DNA from: Planctomycetota bacterium
Lineage (GTDB): Bacteria; Planctomycetota; GCA-002687715; DRQF01
Length of the DNA stretch: 43,224 nt
Direction: 5' to 3'
Assembly (NCBI GenBank): GCA_036479435.1
Contig: JAZGFI010000293.1
Location: forward strand, 1 to 43,224
In this document: positions 27,730 through 43,224 of the stretch, piece by piece
How the letters are laid out: every line of letters begins with the position of its first letter
Numbering within the stretch: the first letter of the stretch is position 1
Position numbers and translations under genes: made by a program
The notes under the pieces: model-generated
Told to the model about the DNA's origin: nothing
What the model saw: only the letters and a program-made list of their open reading frames with translations
Databases searched by the model: none

Positions 27730-28602
27730 ATGACCAAGACTGACCTTTACGAACAAGTCACCAACACCATCGTCGCCGAGCTGGAAGCCGGCACGTTGCC
27801 ATGGCTCAAGCCCTGGGATGGTACCGGCTGCGCCGACGGACTGATGCCCTACAATGCCGCGAGCCGCCGGGCCTACACTGGCGTCAACGTCCTGACGCTG
27901 TGGTGCGCCGAGCGCTTCCCCACGAATGGCTGGCTCACCTACCGCCAGGCACAAGAGCACGGCGGCCAGGTCCGCAAGGGCGAAAAGGGTTCTATGATCA
28001 TCTACATCGGCCAGAGCACCAAAGAGGAGGAGGACGGCAACGGCGACACGCGCAAGCGGTCCTTCCGTTTCCTGAAACGGTCCACGGTGTTCAATGTCGC
28101 GCAGTGTGATGGCCTGCCCGAGCGTATGACCAAGCTGCCCGATCCCTTGCCCGAGCCCGTGCGCATCGCCAACGCGGAAGCTTTGATCGAAGCCGCCGGC
28201 GCCGCGCTCAGCCATGGCGGACAGCGTGCATTCTACAGCCCGAGCGAGGACCGCATTCAGTTGCCCGTGCCGCAGTCCTTTCGGTCGCCCGAGCACTACT
28301 ACGCCGTAGCCTTTCATGAGCATGGCCACTGGACCGGACACAAAGCACGGTGCGCCCGTGATCTGTCCGGACGCTTTGGTGATCGTGCCTATGCGGCGGA
28401 AGAGTTGATCGCTGAATTGACGGCGGCATTCCTTTGCGCCGAGCTGGGCATTGAGGGCGACATCCGCCACGCTTCCTATATAGAGAGCTGGATCAGTCTC
28501 TTGAAAAACGACAGCCGCGCCATCTTCACGGCGGCCAGCGCGGCCAGCAAAGCGGCCCGGTTCCTCACAGCGTACACGGAAGCCGCCAGCCAAGCCGCGT
28601 GA
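27730..28602 (+). CDS. ardC: ArdC-family antirestriction/ssDNA-binding protein with zincin-like domain
   Basis: LE.G.LPW.KPW, YTGVN..L, WLTYRQA...GGQVRKGEKG, VFNVAQCDGL, HE.GHWTGH, YA.EEL.AEL. Confidence 0.93.
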   Translation: MTKTDLYEQVTNTIVAELEAGTLPWLKPWDGTGCADGLMPYNAASRRAYTGVNVLTLWCAERFPTNGWLTYRQAQEHGGQVRKGEKGSMIIYIGQSTKEEEDGNGDTRKRSFRFLKRSTVFNVAQCDGLPERMTKLPDPLPEPVRIANAEALIEAAGAALSHGGQRAFYSPSEDRIQLPVPQSFRSPEHYYAVAFHEHGHWTGHKARCARDLSGRFGDRAYAAEELIAELTAAFLCAELGIEGDIRHASYIESWISLLKNDSRAIFTAASAASKAARFLTAYTEAASQAA

Positions 28603-36435: not shown

Positions 36436-36672
36436 ATGGCGAAAACACCTAAAAATACGGTTCAGGATATGCAGGAAGTCGAACATTTCCGAGCGAAAAT
36501 GGCGAGGCATATAATCGTTCACACAGGGGCCGACTGGAACCAATCGGACGAAAAGATCGCGAAAGCCGCCTTCGAAATGGCCGACGCTTTTTTTGACGAA
36601 GCTCAGCGCCGCGTCGATGCCATTAATTCAGCCATGAACACCGCACCGTCATCCGAGGAACCCTCGCCCTAA
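36436..36672 (+). CDS. Hypothetical protein
   Basis: AAGGA RBS; IAKAAFEMADAFF helix common in small phage proteins. Confidence 0.7.
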   Translation: MAKTPKNTVQDMQEVEHFRAKMARHIIVHTGADWNQSDEKIAKAAFEMADAFFDEAQRRVDAINSAMNTAPSSEEPSP

Positions 36673-36880
36673 CGGCGGGAGGATGACGGACCACCCGCCG
36701 GGCGGGGATGCCCTCAGCCCCACTAGCCCCGCCCGGCCCCTTTAATCGAATTCGGCTGGCGCCCACTTAAGTGTGGATCGACGGGATCCCGACCAAGGCT
36801 AACAGGGCGGTAATGCCGAATAACCGGCGGGGCTCCATTGCGGAGCCCCGCCAACCAGATCGGATTTACAGGAGAACACG

Positions 36881-37162
36881 ATGCCGAAGTTTAGGAAGAA
36901 GCCCGTTGTGATCGAGGCAATGCTATTTCTTGGCGGAGACCAGGCGCTAATCAACATAGATTACGCAGTGGAGTTTGATGATTGGCTTAAGGAAAATCAG
37001 GGCGAGCGCAAATGTCGCTACGTCGGAGACACGGTTATCATCCCGACCCTTGAGGGCGACCACACGGCGAGCGCTGGCGACTGGATCATCAAGGGCGTCC
37101 AGGGCGAATTATATCCCTGCAAGCCCGACATCTTCGACGCCACCTACGAAAGTGTCACTTAA
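36881..37162 (+). CDS. Conserved phage protein (FRKKPV..IEA / TLEG / YPCKPDIF family), copy 1
   Basis: Recognisable family motif; AGGAG RBS; paralog at 39368-39631. Confidence 0.85.
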   Translation: MPKFRKKPVVIEAMLFLGGDQALINIDYAVEFDDWLKENQGERKCRYVGDTVIIPTLEGDHTASAGDWIIKGVQGELYPCKPDIFDATYESVT

Positions 37163-37179
37163 CCCCGGAAAGACCAACC

Positions 37180-37380
37180 GTGAACGAAGCCAACAGAGAA
37201 ATCATGAAAGAGCGCCAGCGGATTATCCTGCGGTCGGCTGGCGGCAAGATGACAGCCAAAGAGTTTTGCAATGAACATGTAAGGCGAGGTTGGGCTTACG
37301 CGGATTTGACACCGGACCGCATCGGCCTGGAGGACACAGATATAGTCCGGCTAACCAACCCGCTTCAAAACGTACATTAA
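37180..37380 (+). CDS. Hypothetical protein
   Basis: ORF between the paralog and the integrase promoter. Confidence 0.5.
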   Translation: MNEANREIMKERQRIILRSAGGKMTAKEFCNEHVRRGWAYADLTPDRIGLEDTDIVRLTNPLQNVH

Positions 37381-37389
37381 CCCCGTGAT

Positions 37390-37418
37390 TTGACACCGCG
37401 CCGCGCCCGCGACAGAAT
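37390..37418 (+). promoter_or_regulatory. Candidate integrase promoter
   Basis: TTGACA-N17-CAGAAT upstream of the AAGGAG RBS. Confidence 0.55.
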
Positions 37419-37457
37419 AGGCGCACCGCACTCCGATGCTCATAAGGAGATCACACC

Positions 37458-38633
37458 ATGGCCACCGTCAAAATCCGCTACCTGGTGCAAAAACCCGGAA
37501 GGGACGACGTCACGCGCCGCTTCTGGCAGCCTTCACCGAAGCTGCGCGCCGCCGGCTGGCCTCCTGTAAGCCTCCGGGATGCTCACGGTGGCTGGCTCAA
37601 CCTGGCGGACGCCATGGCGGCGGCGGAGGAAATCAACACCCGCGTCGACGCCTGGTATCTCGGCCTGGCGGACGGCGCCCCGATGGAGGTCGCGGCGGCG
37701 CCCGGCGATCGCACGCTCGGCGCTCTCATCGATGTGTATGAGCGCTCGCCCGAATTCAAGGGCCTGGCCCCACGAACGCGCAAGGATTACGCCGGTTACA
37801 ATCGCCGCATCGACGCCTGGGGCGGCGAGCGGCCGGCCATCAGCCTGACGCCCAAGACCTGCAAAAGCCTCTACGCCCTGATTGCCAAAGACGGCACCAC
37901 GAGTGCAGCGCGGCACGTGACCCTGCATCTGCAAACACTTCTGACCTGGGCCCGCGGCGAGGACTGGTTCCCGAACAACTGGCACAACCCGGCGGCCAAG
38001 CTCAAGCTCCCTGCCCACAAGGCGGCGCGCGGCAAGCTCTGGACGCGGGCCATGGTCGACCACGTGGTCGCCAACGCCGACCGCATGGGCTGGCACTCGA
38101 TCGGCACGGCGATCATCGTCAACGAATGGATGGGCCAGAACCCGGTCGACTTGCTCGCGCTCACCCGCGCCCAGTTTGACAGTGGCCGCTTTCAGGTGAC
38201 CCGCACGAAAACCCGGGAACAGACCGGACGGCGCACCCTCAGCCCCAAGGTCGCCGCGCGGATCCGCGAGGAGATCGATCGCCAGGCGGCACGCGGCGCG
38301 GGCGGGATACTGATCTTCATCTCCGAACGTAAGAACGAGCCTTGGGGGCAGAACAACTTCACCCGCTGGTTCCGTCGCGTCATCAATGAGGCCGCCAAGA
38401 CCATGCCCGCATGCAGGGAGCTGCAGTTCCGGTACCTGAGGCACACCATGGTCACCCGCGCGGCCGCCGCCGGCGTGCCGCTGAACGCCATCTGCCAGCT
38501 CTCCGGCCACAATCCCAAGTCGATCGTCAACATCATCGACACCTACACCATCGACGACGACGAAGTCACCGACGCCATCACCGCCCAGATCCTCGAATAC
38601 GAGGACGCCCGGGCCCGGAAGGATAGGTCATGA
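37458..38633 (+). CDS. int: Tyrosine recombinase/integrase with atypical box I
   Basis: Arm-binding N-terminus, LAPRTRKDY, NPA, GQNPVDLL (Arg to Asn), TKT, FRYLRHT, SGH, DTY. Confidence 0.88.
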   Translation: MATVKIRYLVQKPGRDDVTRRFWQPSPKLRAAGWPPVSLRDAHGGWLNLADAMAAAEEINTRVDAWYLGLADGAPMEVAAAPGDRTLGALIDVYERSPEFKGLAPRTRKDYAGYNRRIDAWGGERPAISLTPKTCKSLYALIAKDGTTSAARHVTLHLQTLLTWARGEDWFPNNWHNPAAKLKLPAHKAARGKLWTRAMVDHVVANADRMGWHSIGTAIIVNEWMGQNPVDLLALTRAQFDSGRFQVTRTKTREQTGRRTLSPKVAARIREEIDRQAARGAGGILIFISERKNEPWGQNNFTRWFRRVINEAAKTMPACRELQFRYLRHTMVTRAAAAGVPLNAICQLSGHNPKSIVNIIDTYTIDDDEVTDAITAQILEYEDARARKDRS

Positions 38634-38818
38634 AACGGGATCATCTCGCCAAGGTTTTGATGGTTTTCTTCACGACGGGTACCAACGAAATGAACTGCTA
38701 CAACATCGACCATGATGGCAATGAAGTAGGATTTGAGGGCGAGATAGACTGCGAAGCCCTGGCCGATACCATCATAAAATCAGTCACGACAGAGGCCCGA
38801 AAGGACGGAGGATCATGA
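38630..38818 (+). CDS. Hypothetical protein
   Basis: ATGA-coupled to int. Confidence 0.6.
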   Translation: MKRDHLAKVLMVFFTTGTNEMNCYNIDHDGNEVGFEGEIDCEALADTIIKSVTTEARKDGGS

Positions 38819-38820
38819 CG

Positions 38821-38916
38821 ACGGAATCATAATTCTCAGTCAACAAATAAATTCAATACCTTAGGCGGCAAAAACTGTCCAACTATGGGCGAATTTTCGC
38901 GAGAGTTGGACAGTTT
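38821..38916. other. Putative attP remnant: tRNA-Met anticodon-like core, IHF-like site and inverted arm-type repeats
   Basis: ACGGAATCATAAT; ATTCAATACCTTA; AAACTGTCCAACT...AGTTGGACAGTTT. Confidence 0.5.
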
Positions 38917-38934
38917 AAAAATGCCGAGAGAGCA

Positions 38935-39105
38935 TTAATTGATAGCGAAATACACAAGCCACACAGAAGCAACCTGAAAGGCGGTGAATGGCAGAGTGAA
39001 GGACAAACTGAAGTCATATGGCCCTCTGCCTGGCCATATCTTGAAGGTAACATACGGCAAGAAAATCGTCAGAAAAACAAATACCCAAATCATATTAGGC
39101 GCCAT
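38935..39105 (-). CDS. Small 2-TM membrane protein (left array)
   Basis: GAGGAG RBS; two hydrophobic segments. Confidence 0.65.
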   Translation of the reverse strand: MAPNMIWVFVFLTIFLPYVTFKIWPGRGPYDFSLSFTLPFTAFQVASVWLVYFAIN

Positions 39106-39349
39106 TGTCTTCTCCTCTGAGGTTGGGCCGTGTGATGACCAATTCCCGGCCATCTTCAAGGGTTATGCTTCCGTCCTGTTTACCGTGGCCGCAACAACAA
39201 GCGAGTGTGGGTACACCGCCTGCATTAAGTGCCGCGATAATTTGGTGTATGCACCAGTCGATGCAGACTACCTTATTATTGAGCGGTAGGCATGCTTGGT
39301 TAGCATAAGTCTCTTTCCCTCCGCAACTATCGCACCGTTCACAACTCAT
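39095..39349 (-). CDS. Phage hypothetical protein with IDxCI...ALN..G..T..CCxGHG motif
   Basis: Motif typical of a small phage protein family. Confidence 0.75.
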   Translation of the reverse strand: MSCERCDSCGGKETYANQACLPLNNKVVCIDWCIHQIIAALNAGGVPTLACCCGHGKQDGSITLEDGRELVITRPNLRGEDNGA

Positions 39350-39367
39350 CGTTTAATCTTTCCGGCG

Positions 39368-39631
39368 TTAAGTGACAATTTCGTAGGTGGCTTTGAAGAT
39401 GTCAGGTTTGCAAGGATAATACTCCCCCTGAACTCCTTTGATTATATAGTCGAGAGGTTGCCCGGTCATATCACCCTCAAGCGTATGAATGATAACCGTT
39501 CCGTCGTCCCCGCGCTTCCACTGTCGGTGCATATCATGCAAAAAATGGATCAGATCCGGGTGCATATAAACGTCGGGCGGCGGCAACTGAAACGCCTCGA
39601 CCTCGACAGGCTTCTTTCTAAATTTAGGCAT
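39368..39631 (-). CDS. Conserved phage protein (FRKKPV / TLEG / YPCKPDIF family), copy 2
   Basis: Paralog of 36881-37162. Confidence 0.85.
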
Positions 39632-39831
39632 TAGCCAGTCTCCATAACAAAAGGAAGCTTATTAACCGCACCACAAGACGTACAGAGGACTCCAGGATGA
39701 TCAATCATAGGCACCCTGACTTTGAAAGTTGCTTCACAGTTGCCACACGTAATAATCCATTTGGGACCGGACCCCCATAGTTGGGCGATGCTCATGTTAT
39801 ACCCCTGTGCCTCTTTCGGTCTTACGATCAT
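39631..39831 (-). CDS. Zinc-ribbon protein
   Basis: CGNC...CTSC. Confidence 0.7.
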
Positions 39832-39879
39832 CTTTCGGCCCTTTCTAATCGGTGCCCGGATTCGGGCGTTAGCTGCAAC

Positions 39880-40125
39880 TTAGGCAGCGTGGTTGATATT
39901 CTTGCAATCGTATAGGGAAAGGTACCCGAAATTCACTACAATAGCCTGCGCATACCCAAGCCACCTGTGCGCCTTCTCGCCGGTGATATTGCCGAGACCT
40001 ATCTCGGTCAGCATCCATCCCGCATGTTCGATCCCCATACCGGTGTGGCACCGGTCGAAAGGGCCGCCTCCATTGCGGATGTTACTTTTGGTCAAGGTCT
40101 GACGGGCCGCTTCGGCAGTGTTCAT
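39880..40125 (-). CDS. Phage hypothetical protein
   Basis: WML...EKAHRWLGYAQ motif; ATGA coupling. Confidence 0.75.
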   Translation of the reverse strand: MNTAEAARQTLTKSNIRNGGGPFDRCHTGMGIEHAGWMLTEIGLGNITGEKAHRWLGYAQAIVVNFGYLSLYDCKNINHAA

Positions 40126-40328
40126 CCTTCTATCTCCGTGTGAGAGGGGGGTTTGCGAGAACCGTCAGGATTATGAAGAAAGCGCATCGCCCAAAGCCGC
40201 ATATCAGCGGCAACGATTGTCTCGCGCCCTGAGTCTGCAAAATCCTTCGCGATTTCCGACAAGTCTTTGACGCTCAAGTCAAGTAGACATTCGGCGAGAT
40301 TGGTTGTTGTTACTGCTACGTCTGTCAT
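40122..40328 (-). CDS. Hypothetical protein (first gene of the left array)
   Basis: ATG 40328 downstream of the leftward promoter. Confidence 0.6.
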   Translation of the reverse strand: MTDVAVTTTNLAECLLDLSVKDLSEIAKDFADSGRETIVAADMRLWAMRFLHNPDGSRKPPSHTEIEG

Positions 40329-40352
40329 CTTTCGGCCCTTTGTGAAAATGTC

Positions 40353-40403
40353 TTGCGTTTCGTTCTCCCCTTGTATATAAACAGTTCTGTTATTTGTCAA
40401 GGG
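40353..40403. promoter_or_regulatory. Overlapping divergent promoters within a dyad (candidate res-like site)
   Basis: Leftward TTGACA-N17-TATACA (40400-40372); rightward TTGCGT-N17-TATAAA (40353-40381); CCCTTG...CAAGGG inverted ends. Confidence 0.65.
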
Positions 40404-40421
40404 ATTAATACAGGATTTTTT

Positions 40422-41000
40422 ATGATAGACGAGTTAAAAGGATACCATTTGGTCGGCTTGTACCGCGCGGCGAGCGGGCTTCTCAGGCTGTCAAGACAAA
40501 TCGCAGCTCTGGAAGCTGTGGGTATTGAGCACGAGCGGTATACACGGGACACAGAAAACCAGCTGGAAACACTGCTATTGGACTGTCGGCCATCCGGTGA
40601 CAAATGGTTGCCTGTCGCTGTTGTAACCACAGAGCTAGCTGTGCTTGGGCGATACCGTTCGCAGATATTGGCGGCGGTCGGTGCGGCGGGCGGTGTCTTA
40701 TATGACTTGGAACATCAACGGGTTTTCACTCAGGAGGAGGCTGTTGACCGTGACTTGATCGAAGAGGCCCACAAAAGGCAACAGACGGCAGCCGGAAGAG
40801 CTGCGGTCAAGAGACCTGGCCCGGAAAGTAGCTTCACTGAGAAGGATCGCCGCGATCAGCTGGCGGCCTGGGAAAGGCCTGAGGGCTCGAACGCTGAGGT
40901 CGCCGCGCGCTGGGACGTATCACCGCAGTGGATGCACTCGCAGTATGGGGGCAGGAAAGAGGCGCAGCGGAAGGCTGCAGCCAGAGAGGATGTCACATGA
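40422..41000 (+). CDS. Divergent serine recombinase (resolvase/invertase-like) with C-terminal HTH
   Basis: VGLYRAAS..LSRQIAALEAVG, LL..CRPSGD, VVTTELAVLGR, QTAAGRAA..RPGP and HTH SNAEVAARWDVSPQWM align in order with the Hin/Gin/Tn3 resolvase layout; catalytic motifs non-canonical. Confidence 0.7.
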   Translation: MIDELKGYHLVGLYRAASGLLRLSRQIAALEAVGIEHERYTRDTENQLETLLLDCRPSGDKWLPVAVVTTELAVLGRYRSQILAAVGAAGGVLYDLEHQRVFTQEEAVDRDLIEEAHKRQQTAAGRAAVKRPGPESSFTEKDRRDQLAAWERPEGSNAEVAARWDVSPQWMHSQYGGRKEAQRKAAAREDVT

Positions 41001-41515
41001 CGGGTCATAATCCCTGGGTGTCGATGACGCCGGCACAACGCATGAACACCTTATGCAGTTCGGATATTGGCCTGAAAATTCCGGCGTCACCAAGCTTTGT
41101 GACTTCTGCCGCAGCAGCGAATTGTGAGCCACCAGATGAAGGCCTTACAGCAAAAAAAATGATGGCCATGGTGGCTCAGTTCGAGCACCTGCCAAAGACG
41201 GAAGTTCTGGTTGTAGTCGACGATTGGGACATTGATCCGGTGAGTGTTTACGACGGTAATGACAAATTATTGGTCATCGGCCATATCGATTTCCTCAAGC
41301 TGGAAAATGCAGGCTTGTTCGCGCCATCAGGCGGCCGGCAGATTGGCGGCATACCATGGAGAGAAGTATCCCGGCAAGACGCTATACAACGAATGGCGGA
41401 AGCGGTCACAAAGGCATCGGGGCTCCTCAAAAGTCCATATGACGACTGGACACCTGAACGGGTTGAGGCCGAAATTGAACGGCTGGAAAAGAAGTTAGGA
41501 ATTACAAATGAATGA
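40997..41515 (+). CDS. Hypothetical protein (cassette array)
   Basis: ATGA overlap with the recombinase stop; GAGG RBS. Confidence 0.65.
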   Translation: MTGHNPWVSMTPAQRMNTLCSSDIGLKIPASPSFVTSAAAANCEPPDEGLTAKKMMAMVAQFEHLPKTEVLVVVDDWDIDPVSVYDGNDKLLVIGHIDFLKLENAGLFAPSGGRQIGGIPWREVSRQDAIQRMAEAVTKASGLLKSPYDDWTPERVEAEIERLEKKLGITNE

Positions 41516-41708
41516 CCGTCACCAGAGGACCATTGATCCAGATGTTTGTTTGCATTGGATGGACTGTCCGAACTGTGGGGAGGATATTCTACCGAACTGT
41601 CGCGCTGAAAAAATTACGTGCGGCCGCTGTGGCGGGACATTCAACGTTGAACTAGATGAAACCGAGCCGGATGACAGCATACTACGGCTTTGGGAGGCCG
41701 CAGCATGA
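41508..41708 (+). CDS. Zinc-ribbon protein (cassette array)
   Basis: CPNC...CGRC. Confidence 0.7.
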   Translation: MNDRHQRTIDPDVCLHWMDCPNCGEDILPNCRAEKITCGRCGGTFNVELDETEPDDSILRLWEAAA

Positions 41709-41893
41709 ATAGTCACCAGACGACCCAGAAGACGAGCATTCTGTGCCGAATATTTGGGCACCAATGGTTCACCGGCGAGGAGATGTTTAGGCCTATCAGG
41801 GGAGAGCAATGCTTCCGATGCGGTACAACGCAAAATATCAAAGTGCTGCATGACGGCAAATGGAAACACTGGCCGAGAAAGGTCACCACATGA
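41705..41893 (+). CDS. DUF1660-like small Zn-binding protein (cassette array)
   Basis: LCRIFGHQW...CFRCG; GGAGG RBS. Confidence 0.7.
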   Translation: MNSHQTTQKTSILCRIFGHQWFTGEEMFRPIRGEQCFRCGTTQNIKVLHDGKWKHWPRKVTT

Positions 41894-42102
41894 CCGGAAA
41901 ATTTATGACTATCTACGACACATATGCCAGCCTGACCAAGCGCATCTCCGAGCTGAAAGATAAGGTGCGAATTGGCAAGGAAGTTGACGAGCTGATGACT
42001 TTGATGGAGACCCGGGACGGGATTGTGCGCAAGCACGAACTCCACACTGGTTTGGAAATGGCCGATGCCTGCAATGACCTGCTGCGGGGGTTTATCAAAT
42101 GA
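41890..42102 (+). CDS. Hypothetical protein (cassette array)
   Basis: ATGA overlap inside the junction motif. Confidence 0.65.
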   Translation: MTGKFMTIYDTYASLTKRISELKDKVRIGKEVDELMTLMETRDGIVRKHELHTGLEMADACNDLLRGFIK

Positions 42103-42413
42103 CCGTGATCAAAGTTGAGACAGCGAAGGTTTATCGCGCGCCCACGGCTGGCAGGCGATACCTGACAAAGAGGGCGGCCATTCACAACGAGGCAACCGCA
42201 ATGATCCTCAAGGAATGGCCTATAGAAGATGAGGGACCTGATTATAATGAGTGGGGGCGCGAGACATATCCTGGTGATTATTTTGATATAAGACACAATG
42301 AGCCGGAAGCCTTCCAAATAATGCACGATTCGTTGGTGTCGATGATCAAAAACGGCTTCGTTACGGATGACTGGAAGCTCGACGACAATCACGAAGCATG
42401 GAAGGCCACCTAA
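42099..42413 (+). CDS. Phage hypothetical protein (cassette array)
   Basis: VYRAPTAGRRYLTKRAA motif; ATGA overlap. Confidence 0.75.
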   Translation: MTVIKVETAKVYRAPTAGRRYLTKRAAIHNEATAMILKEWPIEDEGPDYNEWGRETYPGDYFDIRHNEPEAFQIMHDSLVSMIKNGFVTDDWKLDDNHEAWKAT

Positions 42414-42649
42414 TGACCAAGACACTGAAGGAAATAGCGTCCAGACTTAAACAAAAGGGGATGCGCTGCAACTGCGATCTGGATAATTGTATGCCACAGA
42501 TCGACACAGGACATTCGCGGGTGTGCCGTATTCACATCAGCGCACGCGCTATTTATAGCGTAAGGAAGAAACCCAAAAAAAGGCCCAATAGAGCCAGCGT
42601 CGCGCTTGCCGCTATCGGTACCCATAGCACCCGACGGATAACCCGATGA
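42413..42649 (+). CDS. Phage hypothetical protein (cassette array)
   Basis: GMRCNCDLDN..P...TGHS.VCRIH motif; TAATG coupling. Confidence 0.7.
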   Translation: MTKTLKEIASRLKQKGMRCNCDLDNCMPQIDTGHSRVCRIHISARAIYSVRKKPKKRPNRASVALAAIGTHSTRRITR

Positions 42650-42873
42650 GTAATGTGATCCCGCTGGGAAATATCACAAAGCTAGATCAGCCTCCGGACC
42701 GCATACTTGAACAAGCCGTCGGCAAATTGGACTCCGTCATAATCATGGGCACCAAGGAAAATGGCGAGGAGTTTTTTGCAAGCTCGATTGCCGATGGCGG
42801 AACCATTCTTTGGATTATGGAACGGTGGAAAAAAGCACTTCTTGAGGTGCCTGAAAAATTACAAGAGGAGTAG
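42646..42873 (+). CDS. Phage hypothetical protein (cassette array)
   Basis: MSNVI...TKLD.PPDRILE.A.GKL..V...G....G...FASS.ADG. Confidence 0.75.
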   Translation: MSNVIPLGNITKLDQPPDRILEQAVGKLDSVIIMGTKENGEEFFASSIADGGTILWIMERWKKALLEVPEKLQEE

Positions 42874-42880
42874 TCACCTA

Positions 42881-43102
42881 ATGGCCGCGGATAGAGCCGT
42901 CAGCGACGACATGGAGCGCGAGGCCAATCTGTTCGCGATGGAGCTGTTGATGCCCTATGACTCCGTCATGCAAGACCTTCGGGAAATGGGTAAAATCGAT
43001 GTAGAGAACGACCCCCGAATCAAGGGTCTCGCGAGGCGCTATAAGGTCACGGAACAACTGATGACAATCCGCCTGGCCCAATTAATGAAGGACACATTAT
43101 GA
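42881..43102 (+). CDS. ImmA/IrrE-like C-terminal fragment (no HExxH)
   Basis: EREANLFAMELLMP...LARRYKVTEQLMTIRL; GAGGAG RBS. Confidence 0.7.
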   Translation: MAADRAVSDDMEREANLFAMELLMPYDSVMQDLREMGKIDVENDPRIKGLARRYKVTEQLMTIRLAQLMKDTL

Positions 43103-43224
43103 CCAGTCACCAGACGACCGATGGAAAACTCAAAAGGGGGCATTCAGTTCTCTATTTAGCCTCGTATTGCGATGACGACGACCCAACATGCACCGACGAT
43201 ATGCCGTGCCTGGAATGTCTGAAA

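Follow-up and report, generated by a model that had tools for sequence, protein, structure and literature searches.

It has long been asked how phages acquire and exchange their small accessory genes; linkers between such genes were proposed decades ago, and the elements called PeSLs are among the few worked cases. The subject of this text is an array of short genes, most of whose junctions carry a 15-bp site, that flanks a resolvase-like gene in a Planctomycetota phage contig (JAZGFI010000293.1, assembly GCA_036479435.1), whose 43,224 nucleotides are referred to below as the window. Several described systems come close to such an array. Integrons are recognized by attC hairpins of about 55-140 bp, and small serine recombinases cross over in the 2-bp centre of a site that measures about 26-30 bp. 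Shufflons, such as R64 Rci/sfx and p15B Min, place several in-frame sites within a coding sequence, so that joins give open frames, and their flanking sites are inverted. PeSL cassettes of T4-type phages, as far as the accessible part of the source describes them, contain small unrelated accessory genes and a repeated promoter-plus-terminator element at which genes were proposed to be gained and lost (PMC2839356). Finally, the Cluster A stoperators, the Cluster K SAS and the Cluster O 17-bp repeats are short mycobacteriophage motifs located near gene starts and presumed to be protein-bound; in the available portions of the reports, these motifs are spread over genome arms, and stoperators and SAS are described as asymmetric and as following transcription (PMC3203893, PMC4351075).

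The junction motif in two phages

Sixteen short genes run from 40997 through the circular junction to 2114, and the 15-bp quasi-palindrome found at their junctions, RGTCAHC-N3-YGACC, is present in 17 copies in the array (counting that at position 8). The nine 15-mers listed in the original prediction were all verified at their coordinates. The contig forms a circle of 43,097 bp whose ends overlap by 127 nt, which makes 43105 the terminal duplicate of position 8. Eight further copies lie at 199, 525, 868, 1225, 1407, 1532, 1749 and 2102. A10 and G12, proposed to be invariant, are so in 17/17 sites, and the count of 16 genes, the N-termini shared by unrelated products and the lower GC content of the array (0.507 vs 0.607 in the core) likewise proved correct.

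When the whole circle is scanned with a position weight matrix, the top ten scores all belong to array sites on the + strand and, in a leave-one-out procedure, 11 of the 17 sites have at most three better-scoring positions among 86,177. The array is also the sole cluster of at least three hits within 5 kb across the 5.47-Mb genome bin in which the contig is placed. It had been argued that the motif is more than ATGA/TAATG coupling of adjacent genes, and the controls agree: the left arm GYCAHC is complete at only 1/846 coupled junctions of the bin and 0/70 candidate phage-core junctions, compared with 4/17 array junctions at the same offset and 10/17 when sites at two in-gene offsets are counted as well. 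Trained solely on the second phage described below, a matrix places 12/17 array junctions above the 95th and 9/17 above the 99th percentile of 896 control junctions (phage-core junctions: 2/38 above the 95th), and 7/17 array junctions stay above the 99th percentile when the ATG and TGA columns are removed; since its training sites were chosen by a window-informed pattern, this matrix is not fully independent.

Two placements of the site are found in the window. In 11 sites, ATG occupies positions 10-12 and the upstream gene stops inside the site in all except that at 42872, whereas the other six have ACG or AGG instead of ATG, with an in-frame ATG 6 or 9 nt upstream. As anticipated, sites can supply start and stop codons, in that the fixed frame lets either the site or its neighbour provide them. 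Conservation spans 15 bp around a one-base centre, the flanks being unconserved, and stops sharply on the gene-body side; in 4/4 YopX homologues, the annotated start aligns to the first or second codon past site 868. Depending on frame and strand, the motif DNA encodes different peptides (SHQTT, QSSVD, ANKRP).

Outside the window, one homologue of the resolvase-like protein (L003) is encoded by G023, a complete 36,754-bp P22-like phage record. It is the sole clear protein in common between the two phages (E 4e-19), the other match being a weak one to a 63-residue stretch of portal (E 3e-4). All 17 matches of at least 12 bits in G023, 16 of which served to train its matrix, fall in an array around this gene, four of them reversed to its left and 13 forward to its right, so that there is about one site per small gene and the sites are oriented outward on both flanks. 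On the right, downstream of the resolvase gene, which is inverted, a succession of 12 genes terminates via NGYCAWC-N3-SSCCC in a single frame, the sites directly preceding the next ribosome-binding site; the first gene of the row has no site, and the 13th site lies in frame within a gene, as if two modules had been joined. On the left, four genes begin via a site, and the outward strand outscores the gene sense in 4/4. Third codon positions are fixed across the 13 right-hand sites, while the same genes use other synonyms elsewhere. Neither Phage_integrase (PF00589) nor Resolvase has a Pfam match in this complete genome, whose genes include one that is RusA-like and one for an annealing protein of the RecT type. 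Opposite the homologue, at 9995-10576 of L003 (- strand), a 193-codon antisense open reading frame mirrors it.

Because synonymous positions are fixed and the peptides vary with frame, the signal resides in the nucleic acid, and the motif is supported as a nucleic-acid-level junction mark linked to the resolvase-like gene. In the assembled sequence, the two tandem sites at 43090 and 43105 have the look of scars left at junctions, and so does site 868 with its 1-nt insertion. Site 43090 also happens to contain the start of the contig, at its position 9. Sites cover <1% of the circle, but this is a weak hint noticed post hoc, as start points can be arbitrary; an assembly branch at this place would be in keeping with a different neighbour upstream. 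Array junctions in the scanned region 38600-43224 have neither a consensus promoter nor a + strand terminator. Rfam families were not found either, and the junctions show no long inverted repeats, no attC covariance model having been run.

The dead resolvase and the role of the sites

The gene beside the array (40422-41000, + strand) encodes a protein of 192 aa without any Pfam or PHROG match. Its structural model nevertheless resembles γδ/Tn3 resolvase over the full length (Foldseek, E 1e-6; 2gm4, 1zr2, 1gdt, 5cy1), with a resolvase N-terminal fold and a C-terminal helix-turn-helix (HTH) (Foldseek; ESM Atlas), and the family profile aligns with Gin and γδ. The roles of the catalytic residues of resolvases are textbook knowledge, and 14 family members were aligned at these residues with two annotated invertases; the 14th, P0015, lacks the nucleophile stretch. 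The nucleophile Ser of the Y-x-R-V-S motif is present in 0/13 members vs 2/2 invertase controls, the window protein having Ala17 in its place, and the Asp-Arg pair in 0/14, D-R-L-(G/A)-R being replaced by A-V-L-G-R in the window and the last Arg occurring in 1/14. A Ser one residue past the nucleophile position exists in the window protein, but in just 2/13 members. The first Arg and the Gln are retained in the family, and the dimer-helix region is shortened. Identities range from 24 to 55%, and all aligned members are dead; P0015, a distant member, reaches the Pfam Resolvase cut-off. Judged by these residues, the neighbouring protein keeps the fold of a resolvase without being active as a serine recombinase, contrary to the catalytic role that the original prediction had given it. 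A homodimer modelled through the resolvase helix (residues 102-120) scores 0.70 vs 0.00 for the best control; the mark is reached by 20/30 solved pairs and 1/23 single chains, the runs agree in at least 75% of contacts and pLDDT is at least 80, but the score may reflect likeness only, because like complexes have already been solved. A strong motif match on the - strand within the gene itself (40588-40602) is a possible self-binding site.

With a probability of roughly one half, the 15-bp sites are cassette joints, at which the dead resolvase is predicted to bind and act as organiser while some other activity exchanges the strands. One site would be attached to each small gene body and, on either flank, face outward from the resolvase gene; owing to the fixed frame the site or the adjoining unit would donate the start or stop codon, so that units could be translated whatever their neighbour. 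The dead resolvase, as a dimer, would bind the sites and pair or mark them, and genes would be gained or lost via strand exchange at the sites by a host or phage recombinase, by single-strand annealing or by template switching. What is observed comprises the motif with its enrichment, frames and orientation, the loss of the catalytic residues and the co-occurrence in two phages; that the protein binds and pairs the sites, that strands are exchanged there and which enzyme would do so are inferences. The sole common protein cannot cut by resolvase chemistry, hence it more plausibly binds the sites and pairs or marks them while another activity performs the exchange. As for the joints, one site per gene, the sharp gene-body boundary, the fixed frame, the tandem and frameshifted sites and the outward polarity all fit repeated joining. 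A bolder version, put forward only tentatively, is a categorically new class of phage cassette system: the non-cutting resolvase would recognise the in-frame sites, pair them and guide another enzyme that inserts, removes and fuses small genes on either side of the resolvase gene, thus organising an integron-like platform from which chimeric proteins also arise.

A number of observations weigh against cassette joints. The original prediction placed a site at almost every junction, which stands for about 12 of 17; the other five (40997, 42099, 42646, 1416 and 2111) do not rise above background, and among them are the first copy, at 40988, and the junction near 42625-42650 that had itself been called weak. 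The half-sites lie 10 bp apart and resemble a repressor operator. Sites differ pairwise at about 5.4/15 positions, neighbouring ones being no more similar than others, and such short and divergent sites would be poor substrates for homology-matched exchange. The N-terminal tag of the G023 methylase gives a mixed picture: 16 of the 30 listed matches begin at residue 10, just past the tag, and four earlier, and of three records one starts exactly after the tag, one later and one with its own 8-residue extension. Gene gain, loss, circles or re-ordering were not seen, and no close relative turned up in the collections searched. Homologues had been expected to flank small-gene arrays, as is the case in G023, an unrelated phage with the same motif, but not at the third locus, L006, where the homologue stands behind a Sel1-like repeat gene on a short contig with no upstream small-gene array and no site near the gene, its 3' flank being just 160 nt long. 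The association of motif array and dead resolvase accordingly relies on three loci and two known arrays.

The strongest alternative, possible but less probable than cassette joints, makes the dead resolvase a repressor: every accessory gene would have one operator, the site, and silencing would be stoperator-like, without any exchange. The HTH is retained while catalysis has been lost family-wide, the dyad has the operator-like spacing just mentioned, the sites lie at or near translation starts, and the window phage is temperate, with an integrase and a CI-like gene. Operators, however, need no fixed frame and would not acquire a common one through point mutation, yet 13/13 right-hand sites of G023 share one; moreover, no site of at least 9 bits is found in the divergent promoter region of G023. 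Four G023 sites oppose transcription, while stoperators, in the part of the source available, follow it (PMC4351075). The roles of organiser and repressor can coexist.

It is unlikely that an active relative of the resolvase, either an ancestor or one acting in trans, assembled the arrays or still operates on them, in which case the resident copy would be a relic or only a specificity subunit. The clear resolvase ancestry, the Pfam score of P0015 and the degeneracy of several sites agree with such a history. On the other hand, the protein is intact and dead across its whole range of identities, so the inactivation must be old, yet many sites remain near consensus; G023 has no Resolvase match; and, from general knowledge, a 15-bp site with a one-base centre is ill suited to the 2-bp crossover of serine recombinases. 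Rather improbable, too, is a role of the motif in the mRNA or the protein, as a translation-coupling hairpin or a terminal peptide tag: three start-type sites do fold into a 5-bp hairpin over the AUG (-3.7 to -4.4 kcal/mol) and the frame is fixed, but the remaining sites fold weakly or not at all, and neither the fixed synonymous positions nor the variety of peptides across frames and strands is expected of a tag. Excision and insertion of cassettes by the adjacent protein as an active serine recombinase is very improbable, as its fold, its position, its first Arg and its shifted Ser are outweighed by the family-wide loss of the nucleophile and of the Asp-Arg pair.

Genes of the array, the phage and the search for relatives

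Reading along the + strand, the first site, GGATGTCACATGACG (40988-41002), is degenerate, does not exceed background in the junction test and spans the resolvase stop and the next start. It is followed by gene 1 (40997-41515), of 172 aa and no family, in which an internal motif match at 41127 (region 41106-41141), in an unusual frame and shortly 5' of ATGATG, may indicate two fused units. Genes 2 (41508-41708, zinc-ribbon-like) and 3 (41705-41893, DUF1660-like) carry in-gene sites at 41517-41531 and 41711-41725, and the best site of all, GGTCACCACATGACC (41881-41895), has the stop/start overlap within its right arm. Next come gene 4 (41890-42102; weak site 42090-42104), gene 5 (phrog_21496, 42099-42413; site 42404-42418), gene 6 (42413-42649), whose 3' junction has no site, gene 7 (phrog_11040, 42646-42873; site 42872-42886) and gene 8 (42881-43102), which encodes a short IrrE/Peptidase_M78-like protein of 73 aa. 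The latter was considered as a fragment cut at a site, an idea rejected since stand-alone viral clusters of 71 aa exist. The two head-to-tail sites occupy 43090-43119 with zero gap.

Past the circular junction, gene 9 (2-211; MTSHQTT...; site 199-213) precedes gene 10 (phrog_16342/2730, 208-534; site 525-539), at the start of which a 21-bp tandem duplication (219-259) adds seven residues relative to its PHROG families. Gene 11 (534-869) leads to the YopX gene (862-1219), which follows the site with one extra G (868-883) and has leader and body out of frame. The row continues with gene 13 (1216-1416; in-gene site 1225-1239, weak site 1407), gene 14 (1416-1544; site 1532-1546), gene 15 (1541-1750) and gene 16 (1743-2114; in-gene site 1749-1763, weak last site 2102), and it is closed by a perfect 12-bp hairpin (2154-2183, + strand), a probable terminator. 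Beyond lies a 9-bp tandem array (2286-2375) that, with an open reading frame on the - strand (2167-2379), could encode a Pro-Asp/Glu-Arg repeat.

A divergent left array of small low-GC genes (38935-40328, - strand) has clear outward sites at 39363 and 39126 and weaker start-type sites at 40323 and 39826. There, a 17-nt direct repeat, AAAGGGCCGAAAGATGA, at 40323-40340 and 39826-39843 (- strand) contains the start codons of two genes and may be a site variant. Further candidate sites picked out visually, two of them in the neighbourhood of 40140 and 39650 and one upstream of the gene in L006, were rejected, as all score negative. The divergent promoter region (40355-40410) contains TTGACA-17-TATACA on the - strand and an AACAG-N2-CTGTT inverted repeat. 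One left-array gene (39368-39631, - strand) and a core gene (36881-37162, + strand) are phrog_419 paralogues, 75% alike over 150 nt.

The temperate nature of the phage is apparent from its tyrosine integrase (PF00589, phrog_1; 37458-38633, + strand) and its CI-like repressor, which are accompanied by a terminase, a head-tail adaptor, a capsid protein, primases and an ArdC-like protein. The original prediction, by which neither a tyrosine IntI nor Rci is present, needs correcting in that this tyrosine phage integrase lies 2 kb away. Directly upstream of it, an 18-nt direct repeat (37303-37320 and 37387-37404) may represent arm-type sites. The ArdC-like anti-restriction gene (27730-28602, + strand) is set among packaging and replication genes of the - strand. 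No attachment-site match was found between the contig and the rest of the bin.

The search for relatives returned little. Neither the window protein nor its first alignment gave a locus in viral or metagenome contigs, the other subfamily alignments gave none in genome or viral contigs, and for the integrase no relative locus was found. Dead-resolvase homologues were absent from 22 genomes of the bin's class, 400 genomes of its phylum gave two marginal partial hits only (E 4e-4 and 9e-4), and the DNA of 40300-43224 has no match among annotated phages. The in-gene motif pattern retrieved no viral loci and two genome loci, both without arrays, and the G023-type pattern 62 viral loci, three of them G023 and the other 59 with at most two sites per strand and no dead resolvase. 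As regards cargo, 9/10 window proteins were found in clusters, each alone, and 8/10 of those of G023, one with a second start call; one search gave only its own query and another no phage match. The four proteins with in-gene sites that were looked up are each on record for one contig and the five others for two, which probably reflects differences in start-codon calling. Defence-system cargo was rejected, as the 23 proteins compared gave no hits beyond weak ones to capP/RmrA and PDC-S64. No joints were detected in the array among contigs of one run (depth ~5, 36500-43224 covered), which is uninformative at that depth; one contig end, at 42879, falls inside a site, within chance.

Comparison with described systems

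In the open-access literature searched, the pairing of a dead resolvase with an array of 15-bp sites is not described, and the arrangement points to a mode of inserting and removing genes that may be new. The 15-bp site and its candidate binding protein occur together across unrelated phage backbones and, as they travel together, the question can be tested with one protein and short DNAs. Against that literature either outcome would be new, whether the dead recombinase proves to organise the exchange of cassettes or to have been recruited to silence genes one by one.

With integrons the array shares tandem promoterless single-gene units, one site each, beside a gene of a recombinase family. 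No IntI-type enzyme is needed here, however, since G023 lacks PF00589, although the window has a phage integrase of phrog_1; the sites, at 15 bp, are far shorter than attC, the arrays extend to both sides, and the neighbour is a dead protein of the serine family. Small serine resolvases and invertases (γδ, Tn3, Gin, Hin) have the same fold, domain order and modelled dimer helix, whereas here the catalytic Ser and Asp-Arg are lost, the dimer-helix region is shorter and the site is both shorter and of odd length. Shufflons likewise have in-frame sites in coding sequence, inverted across the gene, but the complete G023 contains no Rci or active invertase, the units are numerous complete genes without relation to each other, where shufflons have alternative ends of a single gene, and there is no sign of inversion in G023, because all array genes are on one strand. 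Compared with stoperators, which the accessible text presents as asymmetric, the motif is quasi-palindromic, and in G023 four sites have their better score on the strand opposed to transcription. So far as the available portions of the mycobacteriophage reports extend, the fixed frame and the layout in both directions from a single gene are seen here only (PMC3203893, PMC4351075).

The closest likeness is to PeSLs and to "linker" modular shuffling, where small unrelated genes are also parted by a repeated element (PMC2839356). Relative to the part of that source at hand, the array differs in having 15-bp sites in coding ends, no junction promoter or terminator match (38600-43224), a fixed frame and a linked, predicted DNA-binding protein. 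Although it would work like an integron array or the PeSL linkers, the array appears, by the features that define these systems, to be neither an integron nor a PeSL cassette set, a shufflon or a stoperator system (PMC2839356, PMC3203893, PMC4351075, PMC8138268), and it is rated as belonging with linker-type cassette arrays.

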